A DNA stretch of 64,000 bases from a virus. A program made the translations under genes and the position numbers. The notes under the pieces were generated by a model. The model searched no databases. It saw nothing but the letters and a program-made list of their open reading frames with translations, and was not told the origin of the DNA. Position 1 is the stretch's first letter, and each line of letters starts with the position of its first letter. Shown piece after piece: positions 50,639 to 63,720 of the stretch. The stretch spans positions 118,678 to 182,677 of IMG/VR virus record IMGVR_UViG_3300028920_002946. The stretch is one strand, 5' to 3'.

Positions 50639-50644
50639 CGACAC

Positions 50645-50785: not shown

Positions 50786-50796
50786 GATGGGTTACA

Positions 50797-50873: not shown

Positions 50874-50894
50874 CCCATCACAAGGAGCCCCCAA

Positions 50895-51170: not shown

Positions 51171-51600
51171 CATCAAGGCCTACCTCAAGGAGAAGCGCCG
51201 CTGTGAGTGCGCGCTTCTCAAGGCCATGCGCGAGGCCCACGCCGACCTCAAGGAACTCCTCAAAAAGATGGAGTCCCATTGGGAGTACGAGGATCTCGTC
51301 TACCGGTTCTACCACCACAGCTACAAGGCGCAGTTCGCCGCCGACCTCGGCAACGAGGTGTTCGACAGGCTCCTGTCTTTGGTGCCGTGGGGACACCGTG
51401 AATGCCCCGTGTTCGTACGCAGGCTGCGAGCGCGGTGCCGGCGGCCGTGGACCATGAGAAGGTCGAGGGCCGACATCGAACTGATGCTCCACGCGCGCTA
51501 CTTCCTGGAGATGGCCGTGAGGTACGGCAGGAGATACAAGCGGGGGCCGAATCCCATGCCGAGCGGGTATGCGGCCCTGATGTGCCTGTACGGATTATGA
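51112..51600 (+). CDS. Hypothetical protein
   Basis: ORF between tRNAs; HARYFLEMAVRYG. Confidence 0.55.
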   Translation: MKKATRELPKRLPRLTAGTDIKAYLKEKRRCECALLKAMREAHADLKELLKKMESHWEYEDLVYRFYHHSYKAQFAADLGNEVFDRLLSLVPWGHRECPVFVRRLRARCRRPWTMRRSRADIELMLHARYFLEMAVRYGRRYKRGPNPMPSGYAALMCLYGL

Positions 51601-51604
51601 TAAC

Positions 51605-51680
51605 GCCCCCGTAGCTCAGACGAATAGAGCCTCGGACTTCTAATCCGATTGCCCGGGTTTGAGTCCCGGCGGGGGTTCCA
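51605..51680 (+). tRNA. tRNA-Arg(TCT)
   Basis: Loop CT-TCT-AA, CCA; T-loop TTTGAGT variant. Confidence 0.88.
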
Positions 51681-51681
51681 C

Positions 51682-51756
51682 GCGGACGTAGCTCAATGGT
51701 AGAGCTCGACCCTTCCAAGGTCGCTGTTGTCGGTTCGAGTCCGATCGTCCGCTCCA
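51682..51756 (+). tRNA. tRNA-Gly(TCC)
   Basis: Loop CT-TCC-AA, U73, CCA. Confidence 0.92.
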
Positions 51757-51775
51757 ATTTGTCAAGCGGGATCAG

Positions 51776-52393
51776 ATGAGAAAATTTCGGGATCTATGGA
51801 AACCCTACATCAACCGGCAGAAGTGCTCGGAGTGCCAGCTTGTGACGGCGCTCAACGCGTACACCTATCTGCACGGCAGGCCATATTGCGAACAGGATTC
51901 GGACGAGTACGAGCGCCTTGTCGATATGGTGGGTGCCAGGCACGGGTCGGCGATACACATCGAGAGGGCGTGGAAGCTGTTGGGGATATGGCCCGTCGCC
52001 AGATATATCTCCTTCGATGATGTTCTGTCGCACAGCCCGAGCCACATTTACATGAAGAGGCTACCGCACGACAGGAACTCGAATTGGTCGAAGAGGGTGA
52101 CATGGGTCAAGCGCAACGGGACGATCCAGCGCCAGTCGAAGTCGAAGGCCGTGCTGCCGGCCGAGGTGACGATATGGCATCCGACGGTCGGCTACCACTC
52201 ATGTCTAATTATCGACCGCAACGAGGCCCTCGACATGGTGAGGGTGTCCAACTTCAAGCACGACACGCATTGGTCGGGCTGGATGTTCGTTTCGGAGCTC
52301 AAATGTCTCGAGAGCCGGGTCACGAGCGGGAAGGACGGCTTGAACAGCGATGGTCAGCAGTGGCTGTACAGGGTTTTCGGAACGCGGGAGTAA
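51776..52393 (+). CDS. Papain-fold (C39-like) peptidase candidate
   Basis: Q..SECQLVTALNA, YHSCL, VSNF; stop lies inside tRNA-Gly(CCC). Confidence 0.5.
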   Translation: MRKFRDLWKPYINRQKCSECQLVTALNAYTYLHGRPYCEQDSDEYERLVDMVGARHGSAIHIERAWKLLGIWPVARYISFDDVLSHSPSHIYMKRLPHDRNSNWSKRVTWVKRNGTIQRQSKSKAVLPAEVTIWHPTVGYHSCLIIDRNEALDMVRVSNFKHDTHWSGWMFVSELKCLESRVTSGKDGLNSDGQQWLYRVFGTRE

Positions 52394-52458
52394 CTCAGTG
52401 GCGGAGTCTCTGCTTCCCAAGCAGATGGTCGCGGGTTCGAACCCCGCCTCCCGCTCCA
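52384..52458 (+). tRNA. tRNA-Gly(CCC)
   Basis: Loop TT-CCC-AA, U73, CCA. Confidence 0.92.
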
Positions 52459-52473
52459 CCGTAAGGAAGTTTT

Positions 52474-52812
52474 ATGGCCTTAGACTACATCTTCGATGAG
52501 GATGCAGTTCTCAAGGAAGCGGGCGAGTGGCCCGAGATACATTGTAGTGCCGAGGTGTTTTGCAACAGGTGTCGGGTCAAGCACACTACACTCAAATTCA
52601 CCATGAGCCATCCAGATTACAAGCTACCCAAGGACGTTGTAGGTTGCTTCTATGGGCATGATATGCGCGCCTGTATGTGGTACAACGGAAGAATCGAAAA
52701 GGGGTGGTACAGGAGTAGCGACGTTATCTGCTGCCCCCAATGCGCCCCTAAAGAGAAACGTCATGAAAGATGGAGCTTGTTCTGGTGGAATTTCTGGGGT
52801 CGGTTTTTCTGA
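52474..52812 (+). CDS. Cys-rich hypothetical protein (lower GC)
   Basis: Flanked by duplicated CTCCCGCTCCA (52448, 52850). Confidence 0.55.
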   Translation: MALDYIFDEDAVLKEAGEWPEIHCSAEVFCNRCRVKHTTLKFTMSHPDYKLPKDVVGCFYGHDMRACMWYNGRIEKGWYRSSDVICCPQCAPKEKRHERWSLFWWNFWGRFF

Positions 52813-52865
52813 AGAGGAAGGCTTCACACGAAAGCTGAACAGTCCCCCTCTCCCGCTCCATATAT

Positions 52866-52941
52866 GCGGCAGTAGCTCATCCGGTAGAGCACCTGCTTGC
52901 CATGCAGGAGGTGGTCGGTTCGAGGCCGGCCTGCCGCACCA
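52866..52941 (+). tRNA. tRNA-Gly(GCC)
   Basis: Loop TT-GCC-AT, CCA. Confidence 0.9.
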
Positions 52942-52991
52942 GATTAATCCAGGACGCCCGACATATTATATTGGTGTATGGAAGCCGTAAA

Positions 52992-53106
52992 ACCCATGGG
53001 GCCGGAGGCAAGACAACCGACCGCGCGGCGGCGCCGACGGGGGACAACTTCCCCGGCCTCACGAAGCCGGGCGCCCTTGAGGTTAGAGTCGCCTTTCCCC
53101 ATGGGT
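52992..53106 (+). ncRNA. Unidentified structured RNA candidate (~115 nt)
   Basis: 10-bp terminal stem ACCCATGGGG/CCCCATGGGT, extended bulged helix, two apical hairpins; TTAATC-17-TATATT promoter at 52944-52972. Confidence 0.5.
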
Positions 53107-53120
53107 CCCGGCATATGTAA

Positions 53121-53197
53121 GCCCCTGTAGCTCAGCAGGATAGAGCACGAGTTTCCTAAACTCGGTGTCCCGCGTTCGAGTCGCGGCAGGGGTGCCA
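53121..53197 (+). tRNA. tRNA-Arg(CCT)
   Basis: Loop TT-CCT-AA, CCA. Confidence 0.92.
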
Positions 53198-53204
53198 AAT
53201 ACAG

Positions 53205-53783
53205 ATGGAGGATGTCATGAGGGCAACGCCCAAGAAGTCCGCATCGAAGGCCCCGCGCCCGAGGCGCAATAGCACCCGCAAGGCTGCCGCCAAGCCCAAG
53301 CCGAAAAAGAAGAATACCCCGCCCGACGAGGAGGGGTTCCTCCATGACCGCCTCCTGACGGTCGAATCGGCCCTCAAGAACTTGACCAAGCACGTCCGCC
53401 ACATCGAGAAGGCCCTCGATGACGCCGAGGGAAGGGGCCGGGAAAAAGCCGCCTGGGAGGGTTTCGGCGAGGGCATGAGCGCCCTGTCGGGCCTCATCAC
53501 CGACATCCGAACCATCGAGACCAACATCCGCGATATAGTGGCGCAGAATCCGACCGACCGCCTCGAAAACGCGCTCGGCCGCGCCGTCATGCTGTCGCTG
53601 CTGTGGTTCAGGGAGGGCGACCGCGAACCTCTGCAGATACACAGGATCCTCGTTGCGAAGGTGCTGGACATCTTGAAGGAGTGGGCCTCCAAGAAGGATG
53701 TCAAAACCTTCGAGGGCAGCATGGACCAAGCCCTCGCCAGGAGCGTGTACGACGCCCTCGGCGGCCATTCGATTCTCGACTGA
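53205..53783 (+). CDS. Hypothetical protein with basic N-terminal tail
   Basis: GGAGG RBS suggests start near 53217. Confidence 0.6.
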   Translation: MEDVMRATPKKSASKAPRPRRNSTRKAAAKPKPKKKNTPPDEEGFLHDRLLTVESALKNLTKHVRHIEKALDDAEGRGREKAAWEGFGEGMSALSGLITDIRTIETNIRDIVAQNPTDRLENALGRAVMLSLLWFREGDREPLQIHRILVAKVLDILKEWASKKDVKTFEGSMDQALARSVYDALGGHSILD

Positions 53784-53829
53784 CAACCAAACGAGGCGGC
53801 GCCGCCGCCGCAGAAGAAAGGCGTTCAAA

Positions 53830-54348
53830 ATGGCAATGACCGTACCGGACGACGTCGTGCCGATCATCACGCCGGCGATACGGAATCGTATCGCGCAGCT
53901 ACTCGAGGAGGCCTTCAAGCTCGCCTCGCTGGCAGACTGCTCGGATGTCCTCGAGGGAAGCATCGACAAGCTGACGGCGAAGTACTTCCAGGAGGGCGGG
54001 TCGCCGAGAGATCTCGATGACATGCCGGACAACTCCGACCCGCCGTCGATGTCGATCCTCACAACCGATCTTCCGTCGCCCCGGTCCCTCCTCGAGTCCG
54101 GCGGCCAATCCCGGGCGGTTGGCAGGAACGTCAAAAAGACCCGGGGGATCCCCGTCAGCGAGTTGGTTGAGGCCGACAACTATACGGCGCGCGGAAACCC
54201 CGTGTCCAGGTACAAGGGTGTGTCGTACAGCGGCATGGTGCGCAGGCCGTGGGTGGCCAGGTACAAGGGGAGGCGCCTGGGCTGCTACAAGGATGAGGTT
54301 TCCGCCGCGCAGGCATACGAGCGCGCGCGGTCGAGGAAAAGGGGTTGA
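53830..54348 (+). CDS. Protein with C-terminal AP2-like DNA-binding domain
   Basis: SRYKGVS...WVARY..RRLGCYKDEVSAAQAYE. Confidence 0.7.
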   Translation: MAMTVPDDVVPIITPAIRNRIAQLLEEAFKLASLADCSDVLEGSIDKLTAKYFQEGGSPRDLDDMPDNSDPPSMSILTTDLPSPRSLLESGGQSRAVGRNVKKTRGIPVSELVEADNYTARGNPVSRYKGVSYSGMVRRPWVARYKGRRLGCYKDEVSAAQAYERARSRKRG

Positions 54349-54373
54349 CATCGACCCGCAACGGCGGTATATT
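54345..54373 (+). promoter_or_regulatory. Promoter of tRNA cluster 2 (TTGACA-17-TATATT)
   Basis: Perfect -35, 17-nt spacer. Confidence 0.85.
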
Positions 54374-54427
54374 TGATGGATGTCTGCGCCGGGCGTGCCG
54401 CGGCGCAAACCAGCAGGGAGATTCGGA

Positions 54428-54496
54428 ATGTCTGTGACGGTCCTCAAACGAGTCGTTGTCAAGCGTCGGGTATCGACGCCAAGGGGGGCCGTGTAG
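54428..54496 (+). CDS. Attenuator leader peptide 2 MSVTVLKRVVVKRRVSTPRGAV
   Basis: GGGAG RBS; own translation; GTG GTC AAA CGA GTT AAG CGT CGG GTA match the downstream tRNAs. Confidence 0.85.
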   Translation: MSVTVLKRVVVKRRVSTPRGAV

Positions 54497-54527
54497 CCTA
54501 GTTTCCGTCTCACGCGATGAATACACG

Positions 54528-54561
54528 ACCCCCGGGCGAGCAGCCTGGGGGTTTTCTTTTT
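54528..54561 (+). terminator. Intrinsic terminator (attenuator 2)
   Basis: ACCCCCGGGC/GCCTGGGGGT plus TTTCTTTTT; 54522-54533 alternatively pairs with 54484-54495. Confidence 0.85.
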
Positions 54562-54637
54562 GGGTCCGTAGCTCAGTTGGTAGAGCTTGCGCCTTTTAAG
54601 CGTAAGGTCCCGGGTTCGAAACCCGGCGGGCCCACCA
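54562..54637 (+). tRNA. tRNA-Lys(TTT)
   Basis: Loop CT-TTT-AA, CCA. Confidence 0.92.
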
Positions 54638-54670
54638 GAGGGGACTTGCTATTCTATGCATATCCTTTTC

Positions 54671-54745
54671 GGGCGTGTAGCTCAGTCGGTGCAGAGCGCG
54701 TGTTTTACAGGCACGAGGTCGAGCGTTCGAGTCGCTCCGCGCCCA
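54671..54745 (+). tRNA. tRNA-Val(TAC), CCA not encoded
   Basis: Loop TT-TAC-AG. Confidence 0.85.
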
Positions 54746-54762
54746 CGGAAAGGGATGGTGCC

Positions 54763-55173
54763 ATGGGAAACGAGGAAATCGACGGCTTCAGCACGGAGAT
54801 GATAAGAGAACTCAGGAACGACTTTACATTCTTCATCGCCATGTCCATGCTGAAAATAATGGCGTCATCAACGCCGGACGCCAAGAAGTTCATTCGCGAG
54901 GTGGTCTGGAAATGGCGTGAAAAACAGGTGCAGGCACTGCACATAGTGGCGAGCGAGATGGACAAGAGGATGTTTGAGGACAAGGAGTTCTCCGAATTGT
55001 TCGGCCCCGTCATGAGGCAAGTGAACAAGACGCAGCGCGGGGTGATGATAGACTGCATACGCAAATTCTGCGACACCATGGAGGAAGCCCTCGTCGCGTC
55101 CATGTCGTCCGAAACGGACGGAGGCGACGGGGATCCCTTGAATGAAGAAGGCGAAGGCAACGTGCCCTCATAG
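54763..55173 (+). CDS. Hypothetical protein
   Basis: Stop lies inside tRNA-Lys(CTT). Confidence 0.55.
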   Translation: MGNEEIDGFSTEMIRELRNDFTFFIAMSMLKIMASSTPDAKKFIREVVWKWREKQVQALHIVASEMDKRMFEDKEFSELFGPVMRQVNKTQRGVMIDCIRKFCDTMEEALVASMSSETDGGDGDPLNEEGEGNVPS

Positions 55174-55239
55174 CTCAGCTGGTAGAGCAGCGGACTCTTA
55201 ATCCGCGAGTCCCAGGTTCGAACCCTGGTGGGGGTACCA
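55164..55239 (+). tRNA. tRNA-Lys(CTT)
   Basis: Loop CT-CTT-AA, CCA. Confidence 0.92.
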
Positions 55240-55256
55240 ATTTTTCAGGGCGGCAA

Positions 55257-55333
55257 GCCCCCGTAGCTCAGCGGATGAGAGCACCACGCTCCGGACGTGG
55301 GGGTCGCGCGTTCGAGTCGCGCCGGGGGTACCA
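55257..55333 (+). tRNA. tRNA-Arg(CCG)
   Basis: Loop CT-CCG-GA, CCA. Confidence 0.92.
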
Positions 55334-55347
55334 GCCAAGGGGTGGGC

Positions 55348-55854
55348 ATGGAAGGCGGATGGTTCGTCAAGCTTCTGCTTCTCACCGTCCAGAGGACGTG
55401 GGCCCTTCTGACGGGCGGGGTGGAGTCCCTGTTCTACCTGAAGCATTGGTCGAGGGGCCACAGGATCATCGCGAATGCGCGCGACCTGATAAGGGACACC
55501 GCCGAACTCGAGAGGTTCTACAAAGAGATGCACGTGGTCGAATACCGGCGGGATTGGCTTGACAGATGGTCGTTCCCGTGGGTCACGGCCGTCAAACGGA
55601 AGGGCGACTGCGAGGATTTCATGACGCTGTCGTACGCGATAATGAAGGAGAAGGCGAAGTGCGTGAGGACAGCCCTGTACGGTAGGAGGGACGGCAAGAG
55701 AGGCGGCCACGCCGTGCTGATCGTCCGCGAGTCCGGCGGGTGGGTCTTGATGAGCAACATGCACCGGTATATATGGTTCGACAATCCGCATGACGCGGCA
55801 CGGAAGCATTACGGAAAGGACACGACCAGGTACTACTTCCTGGACAGGACATAA
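55348..55854 (+). CDS. Transglutaminase-like cysteine peptidase
   Basis: KGDCEDF and GHAVL motifs. Confidence 0.7.
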   Translation: MEGGWFVKLLLLTVQRTWALLTGGVESLFYLKHWSRGHRIIANARDLIRDTAELERFYKEMHVVEYRRDWLDRWSFPWVTAVKRKGDCEDFMTLSYAIMKEKAKCVRTALYGRRDGKRGGHAVLIVRESGGWVLMSNMHRYIWFDNPHDAARKHYGKDTTRYYFLDRT

Positions 55855-55861
55855 AACATAC

Positions 55862-55938
55862 GCCCCCGTAGCTCAACTGGATAGAGCGTGCGGCTACGGA
55901 CCGCAAGGTTCCGGGTTCGACCCCTGGCGGGGGTGCCA
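55862..55938 (+). tRNA. tRNA-Arg(ACG)
   Basis: Loop CT-ACG-GA, CCA. Confidence 0.92.
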
Positions 55939-55944
55939 TCTTCA

Positions 55945-56021
55945 GGGCGGTTAGCTCAGCTGGTTAGAGTACGTGGTCGACATCCACGAGGTCGGGAGTT
56001 CGAATCTCCCACCGCCCACCA
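55945..56021 (+). tRNA. tRNA-Val(GAC) with C33
   Basis: Loop TC-GAC-AT, CCA. Confidence 0.85.
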
Positions 56022-56050
56022 TAGACATTCAGGCTGCTTGATGGTATATT
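56022..56050 (+). promoter_or_regulatory. Promoter TAGACA-17-TATATT
   Basis: Directly after tRNA-Val(GAC). Confidence 0.6.
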
Positions 56051-56058
56051 ACGGGCGT

Positions 56059-56298
56059 ATGAAACCTGAAACCGCCGACACACCGACGAAACCTGAAGCG
56101 GTTAACTACGTGGTCGTGTCATGTTGCGCCTGCAACAAGGTCATGTCGGACGACCGACAATGGTTCGACGGCACCGACCTATTGGCCGTCGTGCCCAAGC
56201 ACTTGGTGAGCCATTCCATCTGCCCTGAGTGCTTCGCCGCGCACTACCCTGAAATGCACGCCCGGTTCTCCAAACAGGGTAAAATACAGGCCGGCTGA
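56059..56298 (+). CDS. Small zinc-binding protein
   Basis: CCACNK...W...SHSICPEC. Confidence 0.6.
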   Translation: MKPETADTPTKPEAVNYVVVSCCACNKVMSDDRQWFDGTDLLAVVPKHLVSHSICPECFAAHYPEMHARFSKQGKIQAG

Positions 56299-56362
56299 CT
56301 CCCTAATAATGCTTTAATCGCCACACCTGCTGTACGGACATCAGCAATCAAGGGGATGCCAC

Positions 56363-56872
56363 ATGCAGGCCAGGACTGCCGCTGCCGTTGTGCGCGCAAT
56401 GGACTCGATAGCCTCATCACTCGAGAAAAAGGGACTCCTCAGGGAAGCCGAGGAACTCGATGCGGCGACCAACGCCGTCCAGCGACACGCGACCGACCCA
56501 AGCCAGAACTCGTTCACTTACGACACGTTGCAGCAATATCCCGACTTGATGAAGGCGATCCCTGGTGAGATTCTGTCGGTCATGAAGGCAATGAAAGATT
56601 CAAGCCTATGGTGGCGCGATGACGGTGCCTCCGTTACATTCGACCAATACACATTGGATTCCTCACAGATCAAGACGCTTGCAGCCGCCGGATCCCTCGT
56701 CAAGATATTTCCGGAAGAACACGATAAGTACGGGGATGGGTATCCCGTGCACGACGGATACACAGCGGAATTCAATGTCAAAAGAACGCCACAATTTGAA
56801 CAAGCAGGCACCGCCGCGCTCCAAGATCTCCTCAGGAAAAAGGAATACAAGGAGTTCGACCCGGCCATATAG
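56363..56872 (+). CDS. Hypothetical protein with conserved N-terminal helix motif
   Basis: MDSIASSLEKKGLLREAEELD shared with 49059-49556. Confidence 0.6.
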   Translation: MQARTAAAVVRAMDSIASSLEKKGLLREAEELDAATNAVQRHATDPSQNSFTYDTLQQYPDLMKAIPGEILSVMKAMKDSSLWWRDDGASVTFDQYTLDSSQIKTLAAAGSLVKIFPEEHDKYGDGYPVHDGYTAEFNVKRTPQFEQAGTAALQDLLRKKEYKEFDPAI

Positions 56873-56881
56873 GTGACAGCA

Positions 56882-57229
56882 ATGGACGATGCCAATAAAG
56901 TAGTGCAAGCATACCTCGCCGGGAAGTCAAAGGAAGCGATGGACTTCTCGTCCATCGCGCCGCTGCTCAAGTCCGAGAAGAAAATGGACGACCGCGAGAT
57001 AGCGCGCGCCCTACGGCTCGCCATAGCCGCGGAACACGACGCGGCCCACCTGTACGAACTCATCGCGGACAGTTGCGAGAACAAGGTTGTCCGCGAACTG
57101 CTTCAGGACATCGCCAACGAGGAAAAGGTCCATGTCGGGGAGCTCCAATGGCTCCTCTCCCACATCGACAGGGACAACGGAAGGCTTCTCCAAGAGGGCG
57201 TGGAGGAGGCGCAGGAAATAGCAGAGTAG
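56882..57229 (+). CDS. Ferritin-like/rubrerythrin-type di-iron protein
   Basis: AIAAEHDAAHLYE and DIANEEKVHVGE ExxH motifs. Confidence 0.8.
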   Translation: MDDANKVVQAYLAGKSKEAMDFSSIAPLLKSEKKMDDREIARALRLAIAAEHDAAHLYELIADSCENKVVRELLQDIANEEKVHVGELQWLLSHIDRDNGRLLQEGVEEAQEIAE

Positions 57230-57288
57230 CACATCCCACATCCAGCATCGACACGATCAATAACGACAACGGCAAACAGGGGAGAGCA

Positions 57289-57543
57289 ATGATGAGGGTC
57301 GTCATTGCCTTGGTTGCGCTCGTGTTCTTTTCATGCGCGCCGAGGTTCACGGTCTACCTCCACAGGGAGGACAAGATGAACACGGACGGCATCGTCGTCC
57401 TGTCCATCGACACGCTTGAGGGGGTGCACAAAGGCAAGAGGGTGGTGTACGTCATTAGAAGGGATCTCGGCAGCATCGGGAGCGCGGTCTACGGCGCGAG
57501 GCAGAGAAAAATACAGCCAGAGGTTGACAGTCTCTCGAGATGA
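57289..57543 (+). CDS. Small lipoprotein candidate
   Basis: Signal peptide ending FFSC. Confidence 0.5.
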   Translation: MMRVVIALVALVFFSCAPRFTVYLHREDKMNTDGIVVLSIDTLEGVHKGKRVVYVIRRDLGSIGSAVYGARQRKIQPEVDSLSR

Positions 57544-57552
57544 GGGTATATT
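57524..57552 (+). promoter_or_regulatory. Promoter of tRNA cluster 3 (TTGACA-17-TATATT)
   Basis: Perfect -35, 17-nt spacer. Confidence 0.85.
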
Positions 57553-57574
57553 TGGTTGCACAAGGAGTGATGTA

Positions 57575-57655
57575 ATGGTCTACACGGCGAACAACCCAAA
57601 CCCCGTCCAGCAACCGCGGAACCGCGTTCCGTCGGGGTTGGTGGTATTGCCGTAA
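57575..57655 (+). CDS. Attenuator leader peptide 3 MVYTANNPNPVQQPRNRVPSGLVVLP
   Basis: AAGGAG RBS; AAC CCA CCC CAG CAA CCG match the downstream tRNAs. Confidence 0.85.
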   Translation: MVYTANNPNPVQQPRNRVPSGLVVLP

Positions 57656-57675
57656 GATCAGGCACCAAAAATACC

Positions 57676-57715
57676 AAAGCCCCGGCGGACGAAAGTTCTC
57701 CGGGGCTTTTTCGTT
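57676..57715 (+). terminator. Intrinsic terminator (attenuator 3)
   Basis: AAAGCCCCGG/CCGGGGCTTT with GAAA apex plus U-tract; 57670-57684 alternatively pairs with 57633-57648. Confidence 0.85.
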
Positions 57716-57735
57716 TGGTTCACCTAGGAAAAGAG

Positions 57736-58140
57736 ATGAACACGAAGGATATAGGCGAACGATCCGAGGCACAAGTATTGGCCACCCTCTTAAAAGGGGG
57801 TAAGACAGTACTGAAACCATTCGGAGATAACCAAAGGTACGACCTCGTGGTCGACGAGGATGGAGAATTCCTGAGAGTTCAGTGTAAGACAGGAGTATTG
57901 AAAAAGGGATCAATATACTTCCCGACTTGCAGTAGTTACGGACACCGAGGAAGAGGGAAGAAAGGCTATAAGAGAGAAGCAGACATCTTTGCCGTCTATT
58001 GTCCTGCTACTGACAAGGTCTACATTATCCCTGTCGAAGAAGCACCCGAAAGGCAGTGTTACCTACGGGTAGAGAAAACGAAGAACTCTCAAGACAAAAG
58101 AATTCGATGGGCCGAGAAATACGAATACACGGGTGCGTAG
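57736..58140 (+). CDS. PD-(D/E)XK endonuclease, I-Ssp6803I-like homing endonuclease family
   Basis: GERSE..PFGDNQRYDLV..RVQCKT..DIFAVY; lower GC; stop inside tRNA-Asn. Confidence 0.75.
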   Translation: MNTKDIGERSEAQVLATLLKGGKTVLKPFGDNQRYDLVVDEDGEFLRVQCKTGVLKKGSIYFPTCSSYGHRGRGKKGYKREADIFAVYCPATDKVYIIPVEEAPERQCYLRVEKTKNSQDKRIRWAEKYEYTGA

Positions 58141-58205
58141 CTCAATGGTAGAGCAAGTGGCTGTTAACCACTGGGTTGGGGGTTCAAGTCCCTCCGTGCC
58201 CGCCA
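58131..58205 (+). tRNA. tRNA-Asn(GTT)
   Basis: Loop CT-GTT-AA, G73, CCA. Confidence 0.92.
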
Positions 58206-58230
58206 AATTCAGACCGGTCGCAAATGGCTC

Positions 58231-58704
58231 ATGAATGGCTCAAACGGCTCATGTTATGAGAGATTGACCGGTGAGAAGTTCGTGACGACCGCAATCTACC
58301 CGAACAGGGAGAGGGACAGGCGCGAACTGGAGCGGCTGTCCGACCTCAAGGAGGGCGGCGACGCCTCGATGCTCTTTCACAGCAGGAACGGTACGCTTCT
58401 GGCCCGGGGGTACGCCCGGGTGGTGTACGGAGACCACGGCCCCTACGTCGAGATGTTCAGGGATCAGGTGGAGTGGGCGGCGTGGGAACTCGAACGGTCG
58501 GACATCGGATACTACAACAAGTGGTGGACGAAGGACGGGACCCGCGTCATGCTGTACGAACAGAGGAAGACGGTTGCCGACCTGCCCAACCCGCCCGCCG
58601 GCAAGCGGTCGCACAGGGGGAACAGGAAGGAAGGATACGCTGACTACCGGATAGGAAGACTGTATTTGGATCCTTACGAGGTGGTCATGAAACACGGAGT
58701 GTAG
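58231..58704 (+). CDS. Hypothetical protein
   Basis: VYGDHGPYVE; stop inside tRNA-Pro(TGG). Confidence 0.55.
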   Translation: MNGSNGSCYERLTGEKFVTTAIYPNRERDRRELERLSDLKEGGDASMLFHSRNGTLLARGYARVVYGDHGPYVEMFRDQVEWAAWELERSDIGYYNKWWTKDGTRVMLYEQRKTVADLPNPPAGKRSHRGNRKEGYADYRIGRLYLDPYEVVMKHGV

Positions 58705-58772
58705 CGAAGCCTGGTTATCGCACAAGCTTTGGGAGCTTGGGATCGTCCGTTCAAATCGGACCGCTCCGACCA
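58695..58772 (+). tRNA. tRNA-Pro(TGG)
   Basis: C1, loop TT-TGG-GA, A73, CCA. Confidence 0.9.
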
Positions 58773-58779
58773 GATTTGA

Positions 58780-58855
58780 TGGGGCGTGGCTCAGTTGGTA
58801 GAGCGGCTGACTCTGGATCAGCAGGTCGGAGGTTCGAGCCCTCCCGTCCCAGCCA
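58780..58855 (+). tRNA. tRNA-Gln(CTG)
   Basis: U1-A72, loop CT-CTG-GA, G73, CCA. Confidence 0.92.
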
Positions 58856-58934
58856 GTTTCACCCCCCGGGGTGCGGCCTGTAGCGGGCCGCGCGGCCACA
58901 CGGCGGAAATCAGGCTCCGCCACGGGAGACCAAT

Positions 58935-59009
58935 TGGGGTGTAGCTCAGTGGTAGAGCGGCGGCCTTTGGAGCCGCGCGTCGGGCGTTCGAACCGCCCCA
59001 CCCCAGCCA
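58935..59009 (+). tRNA. tRNA-Gln(TTG)
   Basis: U1-A72, loop CT-TTG-GA, G73, CCA. Confidence 0.92.
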
Positions 59010-59020
59010 TGGAGGAAGTA

Positions 59021-59278
59021 GTGTCAAAGAAAATAGGCAAGGACTCAACGATTGAAGAGGCGATAGCCTATGCCTTTGATCTTGACGGTAGGATGAAGTG
59101 CACGGACTTCAACGGTGTCGCCCACATCATCCATCTGGACGGGTCGACGTTCACGATCAAAAACGCGATCATCAAGAGGTACGGGAGGTTCGTGGTTGTC
59201 TATGCGGAGCACCAGCACCCGATGGTGTGGTTCAAAGACGACCTGTACCGATTCGGATTGACGAAGTACGGAGTGTAG
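59021..59278 (+). CDS. Small hypothetical protein
   Basis: GGAGG RBS + GTG; stop inside tRNA-Pro(CGG). Confidence 0.55.
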   Translation: MSKKIGKDSTIEEAIAYAFDLDGRMKCTDFNGVAHIIHLDGSTFTIKNAIIKRYGRFVVVYAEHQHPMVWFKDDLYRFGLTKYGV

Positions 59279-59345
59279 CTCAGTCTGGTGGAGCGCTGCG
59301 TTCGGGACGCAGAGGTCGCCGGTTCAAATCCGGCCACTCCGACCA
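59269..59345 (+). tRNA. tRNA-Pro(CGG)
   Basis: Loop TT-CGG-GA, CCA. Confidence 0.92.
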
Positions 59346-59373
59346 ATCTTTCACCTGTTTACGATCTTGCGAA

Positions 59374-59450
59374 CGGGAAAGCCCAGTCTGGTCAGAGCAC
59401 TACGTTTAAGGCGTAGGGGGTCGTCAGTTCGAATCTGGCCTACCCGACCA
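59374..59450 (+). pseudogene. Degenerate tRNA, Pro-like body with TAA at the anticodon position
   Basis: Good anticodon and T arms and ACCA end; broken acceptor stem and positions 8-9. Confidence 0.55.
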
Positions 59451-59490
59451 ACTCATGTTGTCCTTTGACAACACTTTCTGTTCAAACAAC

Positions 59491-59519
59491 TTGTAATAAG
59501 TTCCGTTAGGGACTATATT
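59491..59519 (+). promoter_or_regulatory. Promoter TTGTAA-17-TATATT heading the low-GC islet
   Basis: Motif match. Confidence 0.55.
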
Positions 59520-59581
59520 AAGTGGGTAATGATGCGATGCTTATGCACTTCATTCTGTACAAATACTCAAAGGAGAGGGTC

Positions 59582-60145
59582 ATGCATTACCCAACTGTTT
59601 TTGCTGTGTTCTTTCTGCTGCTGGTTGCATGCAATAACAACGATGTGGTGCTCCCGGAAAACTGCACTGAACCAAACGTTGTCGCAGCCTTAGGAACAGG
59701 GTGTAATTCAAGTGCTTCGGAGCTCACGCTTGATTTGGTAGATTCAGCAGAATACTGTGACGCTGAACGTTTGAGATGGACATACGACCAAAACACGTGC
59801 GTGTTACGCTTAGTACACAGCCGCAGCATTCTCAACTGTGCCACCAAGCTTGATGTACGTGCGCGAATTAACAGAGACACAATATTCGTCACCGAATACG
59901 ATGTCCGTTTAGATGATTTACCAAATATTGTAGCCGCTTGTTGTCTGTGCCCGTTTGATACCTACGTAGAAGTGGCAGATGCCCCGTCAGAGGAAATAAT
60001 AGTCGTCCTCTACAGACAACTTTGTATTGGTGCTGGGGAATATAGGGATACCCTCGTGACGCGCACACCACTCGACATTGACACCTCCCCGTCACCATTC
60101 TGTAATGGCTATGTTATACTACAATTAAGGGAAGCGGATGGGTAG
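59582..60145 (+). CDS. Cys-rich lipoprotein (low GC)
   Basis: Lipobox LLVAC. Confidence 0.65.
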   Translation: MHYPTVFAVFFLLLVACNNNDVVLPENCTEPNVVAALGTGCNSSASELTLDLVDSAEYCDAERLRWTYDQNTCVLRLVHSRSILNCATKLDVRARINRDTIFVTEYDVRLDDLPNIVAACCLCPFDTYVEVADAPSEEIIVVLYRQLCIGAGEYRDTLVTRTPLDIDTSPSPFCNGYVILQLREADG

Positions 60146-60232
60146 CAGTTGGCAGATATGATCAAGGAATCTCAAAGCGTAAGGCAAATGGTAACGGAAA
60201 ATCATCGAGATTCTTGAAGAAAGAAGATAAAG

Positions 60233-60667
60233 ATGCCTTGTGCGACACATCTACAGATGGTAGATGAAAACTCGTGTTCATACACGAGCACAATTTATGA
60301 CCTCAAGCACTACATAGAAACTGTCGGTTTCAAGGTGGACCTTCATGCAGCCATTGGGTGTAGGTCTAAACCGTTTGACAGTACTTCTAAAAAGTATGTC
60401 AGTGGAAGGACCTATTACGATCACGATGAGCCATTCCAACGTTTGGTACAAATAGACGAGCCCTGCGTTATATGCGCTGTTATGACGATTGCGCATGAAG
60501 GGGGACACGCACTCCATTATGTGCAAAGCAACAAAGAAAACCAACCTCCTTGTGAGGAAAGAGAACGTAGAGCGTACAGATTGGGGTGGAAGATACTTAA
60601 GGCACTCTCAGTAAGTTTCATTACGAGAGAAATGTGGAAGGAACACCACGAATTGTTAGTCGGGTAG
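60233..60667 (+). CDS. HExxH metallopeptidase-like protein (ImmA/IrrE-like)
   Basis: TIAHEGGH...EERRA; low GC. Confidence 0.55.
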   Translation: MPCATHLQMVDENSCSYTSTIYDLKHYIETVGFKVDLHAAIGCRSKPFDSTSKKYVSGRTYYDHDEPFQRLVQIDEPCVICAVMTIAHEGGHALHYVQSNKENQPPCEERERRAYRLGWKILKALSVSFITREMWKEHHELLVG

Positions 60668-60740
60668 TAGCTTAGCTTGGTAGAGCATTTGACTTTGGGA
60701 GCCAGAGATTTCGTCCGTTCAAATCCGGCCACTCCGACCA
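60661..60740 (+). pseudogene. Degenerate/chimeric tRNA-Pro(TGG)
   Basis: TTTGGGA loop; mismatched stems; last 25 nt identical to the tRNA-Pro(CGG) 3' end. Confidence 0.55.
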
Positions 60741-60745
60741 AATTT

Positions 60746-60822
60746 CGGGGCGTAGCGCAGCCTGGTAGCGCACGTGAATGGGGTTCACGTGGTCGCTGGT
60801 TCAAATCCAGTCGCCCCGACCA
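60746..60822 (+). tRNA. tRNA-Pro(GGG)
   Basis: Loop AT-GGG-GT, A73, CCA. Confidence 0.9.
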
Positions 60823-60840
60823 ATTCACCGGAGGCATGAG

Positions 60841-61107
60841 ATGGTCTGGTACGTCTACATGCTCAGGTGCTCCAAGGGCGCCCTCTACACGGGCATCACG
60901 ACCAACGTCGAGGTGCGCCTCCAGACCCACAACTCGGGGCGCGGCTCGAAGGCCCTCAAAGCCCTCGGCCTGCCCGCGCGTCTCGCCTATTTGGAGAAAC
61001 GACCTTCCAAGTCGGACGCACTCAAACGCGAGGCGGCCTTGAAAAAGTTACCGAAATCGGAAAAGGAGACCCTCTCCGCCAATTTCCGAAGGTCCGCTTC
61101 GTTTTGA
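60841..61107 (+). CDS. GIY-YIG nuclease (YhbQ/UPF0213-like)
   Basis: WYVYMLRC..LYTGITT..RL..HN.G.G..ALKREAALKKL. Confidence 0.9.
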   Translation: MVWYVYMLRCSKGALYTGITTNVEVRLQTHNSGRGSKALKALGLPARLAYLEKRPSKSDALKREAALKKLPKSEKETLSANFRRSASF

Positions 61108-61108
61108 A

Positions 61109-61121
61109 TAATCTCTGCATA
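61109..61121 (+). promoter_or_regulatory. Putative late promoter motif TAATCTCTGCATA
   Basis: Variant of the 34374 motif. Confidence 0.4.
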
Positions 61122-61152
61122 CACAGCCCCCAATGTAAGTTATCGCGAGGGG

Positions 61153-61503
61153 TTGGATAAGGTGAAATACTACATGCCTGTCTTGTTCTTCGTCGCCGTG
61201 GGGTTGTGGCTGTCCTGCGGCTCGTCCATCAAGAGTAGCGTAAACATACAGAAATCAATCATCCCCGCCGCCGAGGCGGCGATGTACACCCCGAGCCGGG
61301 AACCCGAACCCCGAATCGAACCCTCCGTGTTTACCGACACCGGCGGCATCTCAATCAACCGCAGGGAGAAACGCGCACCCCATGCCGGACTCCCGCCGAA
61401 ACCCCTGATCGAGTGCCGCAGCATCCTCGACACCGTCTCCGTCCTCAACAGGGCCTCCTATGTCCTGATAAAGGAGACGAAAGAGGAACTTTCGGAGCCG
61501 TAA
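61153..61503 (+). CDS. Lipoprotein candidate
   Basis: Hydrophobic signal ending WLSC. Confidence 0.5.
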   Translation: MDKVKYYMPVLFFVAVGLWLSCGSSIKSSVNIQKSIIPAAEAAMYTPSREPEPRIEPSVFTDTGGISINRREKRAPHAGLPPKPLIECRSILDTVSVLNRASYVLIKETKEELSEP

Positions 61504-61563
61504 GTTTACGGCATCGGTTCTCCCAAAGTATATTATGATGTCACCCCTCCAAGGGATTCCGTC

Positions 61564-62187
61564 ATGGACTTGAAGGAAGCCTCCCTGGTTATGTGCCACC
61601 TTCTCATGCACGAGAAGGATGTCAAGGACGCACGCGAGGCCGCCGAAAAAGACTCGCCGGACAGCACCTTGGATCCCGACACCGAGGCCGAATTCGAGGA
61701 GAGGCTGCGCGAGGCCACAGCGGGCATCGCCGAATTCGGAAACCGCCTCGCCGCCATCCCCGCCTTTTTCGATGTCATGGAGTCGTGGCTCGTCACGGTC
61801 GTCGGCAGGCAGGGCGTGTCCGAGGAAACCATGAACGAGGCCGTGGAAACCAACGATCGGGACACCATGATAGAGCGCACCGGCGCCTTGGCCGCGTCCG
61901 TCCGCGACTATCTCAGATCCCAGGGATTCATCATACGAGACATGGGGGCTGGCGAGGACGGGTGGGACATGTGCGTCAGATGCGCCGAGAAGAAGTCCCG
62001 CACCCTCTGCTTCGACCTTCACCAACGGTTCGCGGACGCCATCAGGTTGAAGCTGATGCACGTTTCAAGGAGATTCGGCGGCCACTATCTGCCGGGCATC
62101 TACACATGGCGCGACGCCCAAAGGCTCCTCAAGGGGTTCGGCGACGGCCGCAACGGTCAGGAGGAAGCGGATGATCGAGGATCGTGA
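61564..62187 (+). CDS. Hypothetical protein
   Basis: TATATT promoter at 61529. Confidence 0.6.
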   Translation: MDLKEASLVMCHLLMHEKDVKDAREAAEKDSPDSTLDPDTEAEFEERLREATAGIAEFGNRLAAIPAFFDVMESWLVTVVGRQGVSEETMNEAVETNDRDTMIERTGALAASVRDYLRSQGFIIRDMGAGEDGWDMCVRCAEKKSRTLCFDLHQRFADAIRLKLMHVSRRFGGHYLPGIYTWRDAQRLLKGFGDGRNGQEEADDRGS

Positions 62188-62386
62188 CCTGGACATAATA
62201 TCGACCATGTCGGACATCATATCGGCGGTGACTGACGCCGCCCGGGAGGGGGTCGTCGACCGAGTCGTCGCCACCCAGCATGTGTCGATGTACTTGAAGG
62301 AAGCGGCGAAGTGCATTGATCGGGGGGCGGCCGGCGGCGAGAAAACTCGCAAGGGGGTGCCGGATGGATCAGACTCCGCAGGATGA
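62171..62386 (+). CDS. Small hypothetical protein
   Basis: GGAGG RBS. Confidence 0.45.
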   Translation: MIEDRDLDIISTMSDIISAVTDAAREGVVDRVVATQHVSMYLKEAAKCIDRGAAGGEKTRKGVPDGSDSAG

Positions 62387-62783
62387 GGGTGCGACTCTTG
62401 AGGAGGAGGCGCTGGAGCACGCGCTGACCACGTCGAGCTTCCTCATGTGCATGGCGTTTATAGAGAAGATAGTTCGGGGCGAACGGCCGAAGGATCCAAC
62501 GAAGAGGACCTTGAAGATATGGCTGCCAGAGGGCAAAACATCGCTCGGGATGAAGATAGCCGAGAACAACGAGGAGGCGCTCCTCTTGGTGAGGGATTCG
62601 GACGAGGCGGGCGAACTCGGCGGGAGGAAGAACAGAGTGCACGCGGCAGACTCGGAGGGGTTGAAGAACAGGAAATGCCTCGTCGCCATCGTGGACGACG
62701 CCAGCCAGATAACCGAAACGAGGATGGCGAAGATTATGAAGGCTCTCGAGTCGTGCCAGCCCGTGTACATCCTCATAGGGTGA
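62364..62783 (+). CDS. Hypothetical protein with degenerate P-loop-like features
   Basis: PEGKTS and AIVDDA. Confidence 0.45.
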   Translation: MDQTPQDEGATLEEEALEHALTTSSFLMCMAFIEKIVRGERPKDPTKRTLKIWLPEGKTSLGMKIAENNEEALLLVRDSDEAGELGGRKNRVHAADSEGLKNRKCLVAIVDDASQITETRMAKIMKALESCQPVYILIG

Positions 62784-63004
62784 GTCCAAGCCCGGTTAGG
62801 CTGTTCGTGCAAGCGATACCTCGAGAGTTTCCGGGGGCGAAAGCCCTGCGCCGCAAGTCGGCCGACGAGAACGTCATCATCGTGAGCGGCGTGGAGGACG
62901 GGGAGAAATTCGACAGGTTCATCGAGAACAGGCTCATTCTACCCCTGCTACAGACAGGGAAGGAGCCCCCCACGGTGGTGGTTGAAGGGGACAAAACCAT
63001 ATGA
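62780..63004 (+). CDS. Small hypothetical protein
   Basis: GTGA overlap with upstream stop. Confidence 0.4.
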   Translation: MSPSPVRLFVQAIPREFPGAKALRRKSADENVIIVSGVEDGEKFDRFIENRLILPLLQTGKEPPTVVVEGDKTI

Positions 63005-63107
63005 CGTAAGTGTCCGGGTTCACGTAAGTACGGGTGTTCAAGCCCCCCTGATTTCCTTGGTGCGTTGCCGTGCGTCAGCCGTTCAACAACAAACCAAGGA
63101 GACAAGG

Positions 63108-63344
63108 ATGAACTCCGAGAGATGGGGCACCCTCCAGGGCATCAAGGGGGAGATCAAGGAACTGGCAACCGACCTCCGCGAGAACAAGCGGTGGAAAACC
63201 AGGGAGTCACGGAGATGCAGGCACCTCCTCATAGCCTACGGGCTTCTTCGCGGGCGGCGGTATGAGCAGATTGAGCGCCCTCGTGAGGGCAATGAACCCG
63301 ATTGGCTGGCTGTCAAGGAGATCAAAGATGCCTGTCCAGCCTAG
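63108..63344 (+). CDS. Small hypothetical protein
   Basis: RHLLIAYGLLRGRRYEQIE; AAGGAG RBS. Confidence 0.6.
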   Translation: MNSERWGTLQGIKGEIKELATDLRENKRWKTRESRRCRHLLIAYGLLRGRRYEQIERPREGNEPDWLAVKEIKDACPA

Positions 63345-63636
63345 AATGTACGTGTTGGTCAGGCGCGACCTCTCCGACAACTACCGCATGGTGCAGGGCA
63401 AGCACGCGCTCGCCCAATACGCCCTGGACGAGCCCGTGCTGTTCAAGGTGTGGAACAACGGCACCATCGCGGTCCTCGGGGTCAGGAACCTGATAGAGAT
63501 GAAGATGTGGGAGCAGAAGCTGCTCGCCATGGAGAAGAGGTTCAGCGCGTTCCGAGAACCGGACCTTGACGGGCAGCTGACGTCCCTTGCCTGCTTTGAC
63601 GTGGGTGACATCTTCGCCAGCCTCAGGCCGGCGTGA
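63328..63636 (+). CDS. Peptidyl-tRNA hydrolase PTH2-like protein
   Basis: MYVLVRRDL..VQGKHA..FREPD.DGQLTSLA. Confidence 0.75.
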   Translation: MPVQPRMYVLVRRDLSDNYRMVQGKHALAQYALDEPVLFKVWNNGTIAVLGVRNLIEMKMWEQKLLAMEKRFSAFREPDLDGQLTSLACFDVGDIFASLRPA

Positions 63637-63644
63637 CACGGTGT

Positions 63645-63720
63645 GCGCCTGTAGCTCAACTGTCAGAGCAGTGGTCTTTAACACCATGCGTTGCGGGTTA
63701 GAGTCCCGCCAGGCGCGCCA
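63645..63720 (+). tRNA. Putative ochre suppressor tRNA (anticodon TTA)
   Basis: 7-bp acceptor GCGCCTG/CAGGCGC, loop CT-TTA-AC, CCA; T-loop TTAGAGT. Confidence 0.7.

Follow-up and report, generated by a model that had tools for sequence, protein, structure and literature searches.

A putative ribosome-mediated attenuator preceding an Asn/Pro/Gln tRNA block in a viral genome

Organization of the locus

The window analysed here is a 64,000-nucleotide stretch (positions 118,678 to 182,677) of the virus record IMGVR_UViG_3300028920_002946, in which six tRNA genes stand behind a promoter, a short open reading frame and an intrinsic terminator. This unit is the third of its kind in the window, and its features and those of its two siblings are as follows, in window positions.

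49553–49722, +, sibling unit 1: promoter, leader and terminator, preceding 8 matching tRNAs
49601–49660, +, leader 1, with Glu/Gly/Arg-AGR/Ile-Met codons
49685–49714, +, unit 1 terminator
54345–54561, +, sibling unit 2: promoter, leader and terminator
54428–54496, +, leader 2, with Val/Lys/Arg-CGN codons
54527–54553, +, unit 2 terminator, 8 nt 5' of tRNA-Lys
57524–57552, +, sigma70-type promoter TTGACA-17-TATATT (11/12 match)
57562–57567, +, Shine-Dalgarno sequence AAGGAG, 7 nt 5' of the leader ATG
57575–57655, +, leader ORF P0122, 26 codons
57590–57622, +, control codons 6–16 (Asn four times, Pro CCA/CCC/CCG, Gln CAG/CAA), holding the segment 1 core at 57599–57605
57627–57648, +, segment 2 (conserved core 57627–57639), partner of segment 1 or segment 3
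57670–57690, +, segment 3 (conserved core 57678–57690), antiterminator 3' strand and terminator 5' arm
57676–57716, +, intrinsic terminator 3:4 with U tract, −24.1 kcal/mol, between leader and tRNA genes
57736–58140, +, PD-(D/E)XK endonuclease gene (PF11645), an insertion that separates tRNA-Asn from the terminator
58131–58205, +, tRNA-Asn(GTT)
58231–58704, +, 157-aa gene, no assigned family
58695–58772, +, tRNA-Pro(TGG)
58780–58855, +, tRNA-Gln(CTG)
58935–59009, +, tRNA-Gln(TTG)
59269–59345, +, tRNA-Pro(CGG)
59346–60745, +, AT-richer insert (43–47% GC) with two ORFs without known function
59491–59519, +, promoter-like site inside this insert
60746–60822, +, tRNA-Pro(GGG), final tRNA of the block

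The coordinates given in a preliminary description of this DNA are all correct, codons 6–16 of the frame 57575–57655 read as it stated, and the six anticodons that it listed (GTT, TGG, CTG, TTG, CGG and GGG) all belong to tRNAs called by ARAGORN. Transcription would start near 57559, as judged from the promoter, and promoters of like shape precede leaders 1 and 2 and most orthologous leaders. As in leader-peptide attenuators, the promoter thus precedes a short ORF equipped for translation initiation. An ATG-TAA mini-ORF at 57570 was rejected as the true start, as it lies 2 nt from the Shine-Dalgarno sequence and the closest relative, L228, lacks it. The DNA was traced to one DNA run, which is probably its source, and to no RNA run; Logan contigs of this DNA run are identical to the leader letter for letter and do not count as independent observations.

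The endonuclease gene is missing in three relatives (L207, L228 and L222), where tRNA-Asn follows the terminator after 10–11 nt. The 157-aa gene has 131 homologues and served as a marker of the syntenic region in relatives; it had no match in Pfam, PHROG or PDB, and a borderline atlas lead to a phage lysozyme-like protein (0.90), with a poor model, was not relied on. The AT-richer insert is flanked by two degenerate tRNA-Pro copies, at about 59372–59450 and 60661–60740 (Rfam 28.5 and 22.5 bits), which are absent from the preliminary list, and in L228 the starts of Pro(CGG) and Pro(GGG) are 83 nt apart. Because this 1.4-kb insert with its promoter-like site precedes it, Pro(GGG) may not be under the sole control of leader 3. 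No terminator was detected in a search of 57720–61300.

As for the virus itself, a giant uncultured phage with a contig of 464 kb, INPHARED contained no cultured close relative, RecA, NadE and release-factor baits retrieved no close viral relatives, and the 169-aa ORF at 56363 had no homologue. Within the 39% of the genome examined, a baseplate-J gene is present and neither terminase nor sheath gave a match.

Correspondence between leader codons and tRNAs

Codons 6–16 include the exact codon for each of the six anticodons of block 3, so the control codons are cognate to the products of the downstream genes. Nine of codons 6–17 are read by block-3 tRNAs (binomial P 5e-7 on phage codon usage), against none of the same 12 by the tRNAs of block 1, and none of 33,117 windows of phage genes matches leader 3 in holding all six Watson-Crick codons within 12 codons. 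Each of the three leaders in the window fits the tRNA block behind it much better than either of the remaining blocks, giving a diagonal in the 3 × 3 comparison, and the Arg codons are divided as the Arg tRNAs are, with AGR in leader 1 and CGN in leader 2.

Alternative folds of the leader RNA

All the pairings proposed in the preliminary description were recovered by computation. Segment 57633–57648 can pair with 57670–57684 at −19.1 kcal/mol (−31.9 for the whole 2:3 arm, 57629–57688) or with 57599–57605 at −11.5 kcal/mol (−38.7 for the whole 1:2 arm), and the terminator stem at 57676–57709 has −24.1 kcal/mol. Antiterminator 2:3 and terminator 3:4 are mutually exclusive. The leader RNA folds with z = −4.2 relative to dinucleotide shuffles, and the antiterminator complement has z = −3.3, compared with a mean of +0.12 for 165 matched viral terminators with the same stem.

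When a stalled ribosome was modelled at each codon, the terminator probability was about 1 at codons 2–8 and from codon 17 to the stop, and 0.00–0.46 at codons 9–16, where the antiterminator formed instead. With a computed footprint of 9–12 nt, a ribosome on the control codons is predicted to leave segment 2 free and a ribosome beyond them to cover it. Codons 6–16 had been proposed as the sensing stretch; at equilibrium this holds for about codon 8 or 9 through 16, but not for codons 6–8, where a stall leaves the terminator because a local hairpin still hides segment 2. In a model of the nascent transcript, 2:3 forms wherever the ribosome stands as far as codon ~16 and is lost in all three leaders when the A site goes beyond codon ~16–17; the final control codon is codon 15–17 in each of them. 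The barrier from 1:2 to 2:3 is about 21 kcal/mol (findpath). A further suggestion, that tRNAs are grouped so that each sensing stretch stays weakly structured, found no support: leader 3 lies at quantile 0.46, the mean for 16 leaders is 0.44 (P = 0.23), and only leader 1 has a clearly unstructured stretch.

Conservation and covariation among orthologues

Nineteen orthologous leaders were compared, 12 of them retrieved with a search pattern in which the Gln codons and portions of both segment 2 and segment 3 are fixed; as the orthologues are related, the covariation counts below are of non-independent events. The 2:3 helix is paired in 97.4% of cells, with two-sided changes in 4 of 12 pairs, and none of 500 shuffles equalled it in percentage paired, cells changed or covariation score; it is also the best among slid registers. 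The lower stem of 3:4 is paired in 95.4%, with two-sided changes in 4 of 8 pairs and 0/500 shuffles, and the same segment 3 bases are compensated on both partners, segments 2 and 4. In each of the 19 orthologues the proposed 1:2 protector is predicted to fold ahead of the synthesis of segment 3 (P >= 0.80); it is mostly no better than under synonymous recoding, however, its register differs by lineage and its covariation is weak. With the full transcript at equilibrium, the window, L207, L216 and L230 switch and most orthologues remain terminated; in many of them, switching would therefore have to be under kinetic control.

The ATG-to-stop frame is open in all 19 orthologues, preceded by a Shine-Dalgarno sequence or with the ATG close after the −10 box (leaderless-like). 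The N-terminal codons are free to vary among relatives and the Asn/Pro/Gln core is retained. Both Gln codons occur in 19/19; L209 and L235, which were fetched by protein and not by the pattern, have them in swapped order. The set of three Pro codon classes is complete in 17/19, with CCA and CCG swapped in L207 and L228.

Recurrence in other phages and bacteria

In a survey blind to codons, 27 viral terminators lay no more than 30 nt from a tRNA, and 20 of these had a stand-alone short ORF whose end is 15–35 nt 5' of the terminator, compared with 38 of 653 other terminators. The amino-acid match between leader and block was 0.51, against 0.30 ± 0.03 when permuted (0/20,000; n = 16, the window left out). 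In a set of 24 unrelated leaders, the plateau of the antiterminator mostly stops where the matched codon run stops, and there is an enrichment of the antiterminator complement (mean z −2.7 against +0.1, P 6e-13). Cellulophaga phages phi17:2 and phi4:1, which are in culture, contain three of these units. A few bacterial chromosomes share the design, and that of Chryseolinea serpens DSM 24574, a type strain, has two candidates; a stand-alone short ORF is missing at 45 of 57 bacterial terminator–tRNA junctions. In the stretches examined, the tRNA arrays of L121–L126, L142, Variovorax V45v66 and Justusliebigvirus showed no such unit. The leader-attenuator design for tRNA blocks is thus common, but not universal.

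Proposed mechanism and alternatives

Alternative folds, footprint switching over the control codons, and covariation of 2:3 and 3:4 in 19 orthologues all bear out the attenuator reading of the preliminary description, and we consider it very probable that a ribosome-mediated transcription attenuator ties the Asn/Pro/Gln tRNA block to the decoding speed of those codons. The analysis shows the anatomy, the codon–anticodon match, the predicted folds, the covariation and the recurrence, whereas we infer that the leader is translated, that switching really takes place, that there is a pause at 1:2, and which signal acts in vivo. RNA polymerase would start at the sigma70-type promoter and a ribosome would load on the leader ORF. 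With charged tRNA for AAC, CCA, CCC, CCG, CAG and CAA plentiful, the ribosome would pass codon ~17 and cover segment 2, and the 3:4 terminator would end transcription at about 57716. Were any cognate tRNA scarce, through cleavage by a host anticodon nuclease, degradation or excess phage demand, the ribosome would wait at codons ~9–16, covering segment 1 but not segment 2, and the free segment 2 would form the 2:3 antiterminator, allowing transcription of the tRNA block. Fresh tRNAs would then relieve the stall, amounting to negative-feedback control of supply for each isoacceptor, and without translation the 1:2 hairpin would form first and termination would be expected. If this mechanism holds, our best guess, favoured by a modest margin, is that the signal is loss of functional tRNA, in counter-defence or host shut-off. 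With one control codon per tRNA, the response would be weak when the shortage is mild (PMC1183508).

The same switch might instead have evolved to sense amino-acid starvation through uncharged tRNA, as in trp, his or ilv attenuators, with the tRNA targets incidental. Missing and uncharged tRNA are alike to a stalled ribosome, and Asn, Pro or Gln starvation should induce the unit (PMC1183508). However, extra tRNA is no cure for a shortage of amino acid, and amino-acid attenuators prefer runs of the single starvation-sensitive synonym (PMC1183508), whereas here there is one codon per isoacceptor, a set kept through position swaps; the AGR/CGN split of the leaders also mirrors the Arg tRNA split exactly. 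This origin therefore appears improbable.

Still less probable is a sensor of general translation rate or nascent-peptide arrest, in which Asn-Pro-Asn-Pro..Gln-Gln-Pro-Arg or a slow ribosome would open the switch irrespective of codon identity. The leader peptides have no common motif across units, each tracking its downstream tRNA set, and the conserved synonymous codon sets would be unnecessary for a peptide signal, even though the peptide core is conserved among orthologues, Pro-rich stretches are slow, and 2:3 forms on the nascent transcript for any ribosome position to codon ~16. Protein antitermination is common in phages, and 39% of the genome was examined, which leaves room for an N/Q/NusG-like protein that overrides the terminator at a set infection time, with the leader and 2:3 unused or vestigial; compensatory 2:3 changes, the conserved open frame and codon set, and the presence of the design in unrelated phages as well as on bacterial chromosomes make this equally hard to credit.

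The faintest chance goes to T-box-like direct tRNA sensing, or to a constitutive terminator with another promoter and a chance codon match: a GGTGGTA stretch in segment 2 resembles a T-box and there is a weak promoter-like site at position 57999, but no Rfam family, T-box or other, matches over the leader at E <= 1, the T-box-like letters are not conserved among orthologues, the terminator-to-tRNA-Asn gap of 10–11 nt in several relatives leaves no space for a further promoter, and chance is excluded by the codon-window count, the survey permutation and the complement enrichment.

Comparison with known systems

The preferred attenuator shares with trpL, hisL, pheL and the multivalent thrL and ilvL a promoter, a leader ORF with control codons, segments 1–4 and a U tract (PMC1183508, PMC3082878), as well as exclusive 2:3 and 3:4 hairpins, with segment 2 freed by a stall at the control codons and covered by a ribosome at the stop. 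It differs in targeting tRNA genes and not enzymes (tRNAs, an endonuclease and uncharacterised ORFs lie downstream, instead of biosynthesis or synthetase genes), in having one codon per isoacceptor rather than one-codon runs, in that its own product would relieve the stall, in that three parallel units share out the tRNA set, and in being carried by a phage. The E. coli pheST (pheM) attenuator controls phenylalanyl-tRNA synthetase by leader-peptide attenuation and likewise sustains the supply of charged tRNA, but with a synthetase as target, for one amino acid and on a host chromosome.

In T-box riboswitches, too, the state of one particular tRNA decides between termination and antitermination, but they bind uncharged tRNA directly, without a leader ORF, and mainly precede synthetase, biosynthesis and transport genes (PMC2494555). 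The Anabaena trn operon (L-array) with TrcR is likewise an accessory tRNA array induced when translation is impaired, but by a repressor acting at initiation, in response to general translational stress over hours and without codon-specific blocks; its papers mention neither attenuation nor a leader (PMC8421152, PMC10272220). Unlike such a single array, the window has three promoters, each with its leader and terminator.

Phage tRNAs are known in counter-defence: T5 tRNA-Tyr counters retron Ec78, T5 tRNA-Lys/Thr/Asn act against PARIS, and a phage tRNA-Thr counters P2-OLD (10.1101/2023.03.15.532788, PMC12409363, PMC12445682), with tRNA-Asn(GUU) among the rescuers from tRNA-cleaving defence (PMC12409363). 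These systems give a likely reason to supply tRNAs, and the amount made matters for rescue; the available parts of these reports describe no sensing or conditional expression.

Implications

The mechanism is classical leader-peptide attenuation, and its use for tRNA genes with one codon per isoacceptor was found in no paper; our literature search, which covered few subscription journals, returned none on leader-peptide attenuation of tRNA genes. We lean slightly towards the view that this is a widespread, unreported layer of regulation, in which the tRNA genes of large phages, and those of some bacterial chromosomes, are divided into blocks, each behind a leader sampling all the codons that its tRNAs read. 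Such leaders would detect the loss of tRNA isoacceptor by isoacceptor and bring out replacements, with host anticodon nucleases or tRNA decay as the trigger. If so, the leaders would be a readable record of the tRNAs that each phage expects to lose.

The purpose of phage tRNA arrays is an old question, with codon bias, host tRNA decay and counter-defence among the answers, and a switch that responds to slow reading of its own codons would argue for on-demand supply. Each leader predicts which depletion should induce which tRNA block. Leader-peptide attenuation, known from amino-acid operons, would thereby gain tRNA genes as targets and phages as carriers, in a loop that corrects itself for each isoacceptor separately, and such units may constitute compact natural sensors of tRNA cleavage.

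Unit architecture and codon match

Three promoter-leader-terminator-tRNA units are found in the window, at 49553, 54345 and 57524, and in the third a leader ORF (57575-57655) precedes tRNAs for Asn, Pro (three) and Gln (two). The best promoters of the region, near-consensus TTGACA-17-TATATT, are located at these positions, and in all three units the promoter is followed by an SD, an ORF of 19-26 codons and, 21-30 nt on, a hairpin that is GC-rich and ends in a U tract. Automatic terminator detection ahead of tRNAs gave these three and no others; beyond the terminator of unit 3, none was detected through Pro(GGG).

The codons, anticodons and pairings that the preliminary description gave for unit 3 all proved exact on rechecking. 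Nine of the 12 codons 6-17 of leader 3 are read by its own Asn/Pro/Gln block (P 5e-7), compared with none for block 1 and three for block 2; leaders 1 and 2 match their own blocks at 10/12 and 9/12 codons, respectively, and other blocks at 0-1. All six codons exactly matching the anticodons occur in leader 3, whereas none of the 33,117 stretches of twelve codons taken from the phage's genes equals this, and the Arg codons are divided between leaders 1 and 2 in the same way as the Arg tRNAs. The remaining codons in or just after the control run (57590-57631), namely GTC, CGG, CGC and GTT, each have a reader among the block-2 tRNAs; because orthologues keep only the Arg codon after Pro, these codons are probably structural.

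Predicted folding of the leader

The ribosome-free fold of leader 3 consists of a long 1:2 (protector) arm plus the 3:4 terminator (z -4.2). With the ribosome modelled as an unpaired footprint, the terminator probability is ~1 when the A site is at codons 2-8 or from 17 to the stop, and 0.00-0.46 at codons 9-16 (a longer footprint moves this range to 8-15). In the nascent transcript without segment 4, the 2:3 antiterminator prevails until the A site is beyond codon ~16-17 in all three leaders, in each of which the control run ends at codon 15-17. The folding energies for unit 3 are -38.7 (1:2), -31.9 (2:3) and -24.1 kcal/mol (3:4), and since the barrier from 1:2 to 2:3 is estimated at ~21 kcal/mol, an untranslated leader should remain in 1:2 and terminate. 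The earlier suggestion that blocks are grouped so that each sensing stretch stays unstructured was not supported.

Orthologues of unit 3

The 157-aa gene after tRNA-Asn was used as a lead to syntenic contigs, and a pattern built from those yielded 18 more metagenome stretches, 17 of them with the full unit. The 19 distinct leaders compared are related in sequence, and 12 come from the pattern, which fixes some positions. All have an open frame whose first codons are free to vary, and all retain a core of Asn and Pro codons, after which come two Gln codons and Pro. Wherever the contig extends far enough, the tRNAs downstream are for Pro and/or Gln, in most cases along with Asn. Both Gln codons are present in 19/19 (order reversed in two protein-fetched leaders) and all three Pro codon classes in 17/19, with CCA and CCG exchanged in the fetched stretches L207 and L228.

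Across the 19 leaders, pairing reaches 97.4% in the 2:3 helix and 95.4% in the lower 3:4 stem. Each carries four two-sided changes, and both outdo 500/500 shuffles (percent paired, cells changed and covariation score) as well as slid registers. Segment-3 bases are compensated in both segment 2 and segment 4 at the same positions. The 1:2 pairing is formable in all orthologues, largely because Pro/Asn codons are complementary to the G run; its register shifts and covariation is weak. Equilibrium folding leaves many orthologues terminated at every ribosome position, and with the nascent transcript 2:3 is lost right after the control run in all of them, which argues for a kinetic switch. The trp leader is comparable, its II:III and III:IV helices being similar in stability (PMC1183508).

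The terminator lies 10-11 nt before tRNA-Asn in L207, L228 and L222, so that read-through is the sole way in which this tRNA can be produced there; the window's PD-(D/E)XK gene is an insertion. Orthologues also exist for units 1 and 2. As a single hint that leader codons may follow the gain or loss of their tRNAs, L209 has neither CCG in its leader nor a nearby Pro(CGG). An extra unit in the same phage clade (L209:19496-19650; L211:11921-12085) has a Ser/Ile/Phe/Asp/Met-rich leader before Phe, Asp and Met tRNAs, and is probably present in this genome past the window end.

Recurrence in other phages and in bacteria

Viral contigs were screened, blind to ORFs and codons, for tRNAs that start no more than 30 nt from a U tract, and arrays of GenBank phages were added to the set. 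By a blind rule, 20 of 27 tRNA-adjacent terminators have a short stand-alone ORF whose end lies 15-35 nt upstream of the stem, versus 38 of 653 others. Leader composition matches the leader's own tRNA block at 0.51, versus 0.30 +/- 0.03 for permuted blocks (0/20,000; 16 leaders, window left out). In unrelated leaders the antiterminator plateau ends mostly at the end of the matched run, and sequence complementary to the terminator arm is over-represented upstream of it (mean z -2.7, P 6e-13), the comparison being terminators with unit 3's own stem (mean z +0.1). At one extreme, L131 (3462-3649), L190 (7769) and L193 show a one-sensor variant, in which a single ~45-codon leader that includes all 20 amino acids or almost all stands ahead of a whole array of 23-28 tRNAs; at the other are one-amino-acid units (Gln, Leu). 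The design is also found in the huge phages LR745206, LR756501 and LR756504 and in two cultured phages of Cellulophaga, phi17:2 and phi4:1. The first leader in these two has TTA, CTA and CGT, the codons for its tRNAs Leu(TAA), Leu(TAG) and Arg(ACG).

In bacterial genomes, where units were matched by inspection, no leader was present at 45 of 57 terminator-tRNA junctions. Matching units occur in three Chryseolinea genomes, including C. serpens DSM 24574, whose chromosomal tRNA cluster carries Asn and Lys, then Pro, Tyr, Arg and Ser (His added in L278); His, Ser, Tyr, Arg and Pro codons abound in the second leader. The L278 cluster also contains an RNA ligase gene. Three gammaproteobacterial MAG chromosomes (L329, 1935-2195; L333; L347) have a long leader whose last part is an Arg/Phe/Asn/Glu/Asp/Lys/His-rich run; the leader lies 67 nt upstream of the terminator and is followed by Phe, Asn, Asp/Glu, Met, His, Arg and Lys tRNAs in a housekeeping context, adjoining mutS and nhaA in L329. 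Others are in one Ignavibacteriaceae and one Planctomycetota bin.

Units in a cultured phage and a bacterial chromosome
KT962247, ~87518, ~88470 and ~90037: Cellulophaga phage units
L356, 1418-1566 and 3289-3431: two candidate leader-terminator units of C. serpens DSM 24574, similar in L278 and L355

The phage and its tRNA array

The window makes up the final 64 kb of the virus record (182,677 bp, 62% GC, completeness estimate 39%) and encodes a baseplate-J protein, a UvsX-like recombinase, a sliding clamp, DNA methylases, NAD synthetase, a nucleotidyltransferase and a hydrolase from a PHROG family resembling Pth2, a gene set indicating a jumbo phage. Two window proteins are also carried by a 463,769-bp contig, and window DNA is contained in a marine-sediment sequencing run. 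Roughly one in four crude gene calls ends in TAA, including leader 3.

Features in and around the tRNA array (window coordinates)
Within 14210-22306 and 46592-49015 (joint listing): two large genes for DNA methyltransferases, of which one apparently contains an intein-like insert; a PncB-like gene paired with NAD synthetase, immediately 5' of the array
49763-63720: the record's full set of 22 tRNA calls
49959-50638: release-factor-like gene (PCRF, RF-1 domains) inside block 1, interrupted by an in-frame TGA after codon 37 (CTA-TGA-C)
50757-50785 and 56022-56050: promoter-like sites, one 12 nt upstream of tRNA(CAT) at 50797
58131-58140, 58695-58704 and 59269-59278: TAG stop of an ORF at positions 8-10 of the next tRNA gene, the stop codon therefore being part of the tRNA
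59346-60745: AT-richer 1.4-kb insert separating Pro(CGG) from Pro(GGG), a degenerate tRNA-Pro copy at each boundary, the second sharing its 3' end with Pro(CGG) and resembling an attachment-site duplication
59491: promoter-like site of this insert
63645-63720: tRNA with anticodon TTA (ochre reader), 3' of the Pth2-like gene

Given the site before tRNA(CAT), attenuator 1 may not control the whole of block 1. The release-factor-like gene is taken as a second translation-sensing device; in relatives its TGA is at the same place, in frame in L126, L131 and L142, and in the CTT-TGA form of L117, L119, L121, L122 and L125 requiring a +1 shift, as in prfB. The similar tRNA of the relative L206 has CTA (amber), as do L209, L230, L141 and L146.

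Mechanism and meaning

Unit 3 has the sequence-level features of a ribosome-mediated attenuator and is predicted to work like trpL, hisL, thrL and ilvL. A T-box is ruled out, as an Rfam search gave no match, and an amino-acid-operon attenuator because the downstream targets are tRNA genes; the TrcR-repressed Anabaena array is set apart, its papers making no mention of attenuation or leaders (PMC8421152, PMC10272220). Leader-peptide attenuation, whether reading tRNA supply or starvation, is very highly probable. Amino-acid attenuators favour, singly, the synonym most sensitive to starvation (PMC1183508); one codon per isoacceptor, with the Arg split matching the Arg tRNAs, points to tRNA supply as the signal, and a leader-peptide attenuator of this kind is highly likely. 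Slow decoding at any of the six codons would open the block supplying their tRNAs, and the newly made tRNAs would close it again; every functional step here is inferred.

The observed unit is real, and its novelty is a known attenuation mechanism applied to tRNA genes; a full-text literature search found no account of leader-peptide attenuation for tRNA genes. Its purpose may be homeostatic tRNA supply in late infection. Our best guess is that the tRNA switch would serve counter-defence, because host nucleases that cut tRNAs, and rescue by phage tRNAs made in sufficient amount, are documented (PMC12409363, PMC12445682, 10.1101/2023.03.15.532788; review PMC7824862), PARIS AriB, for one, cleaving tRNA-Asn(GUU), and because other translation-rescue and NAD genes adjoin the tRNA array in this phage.
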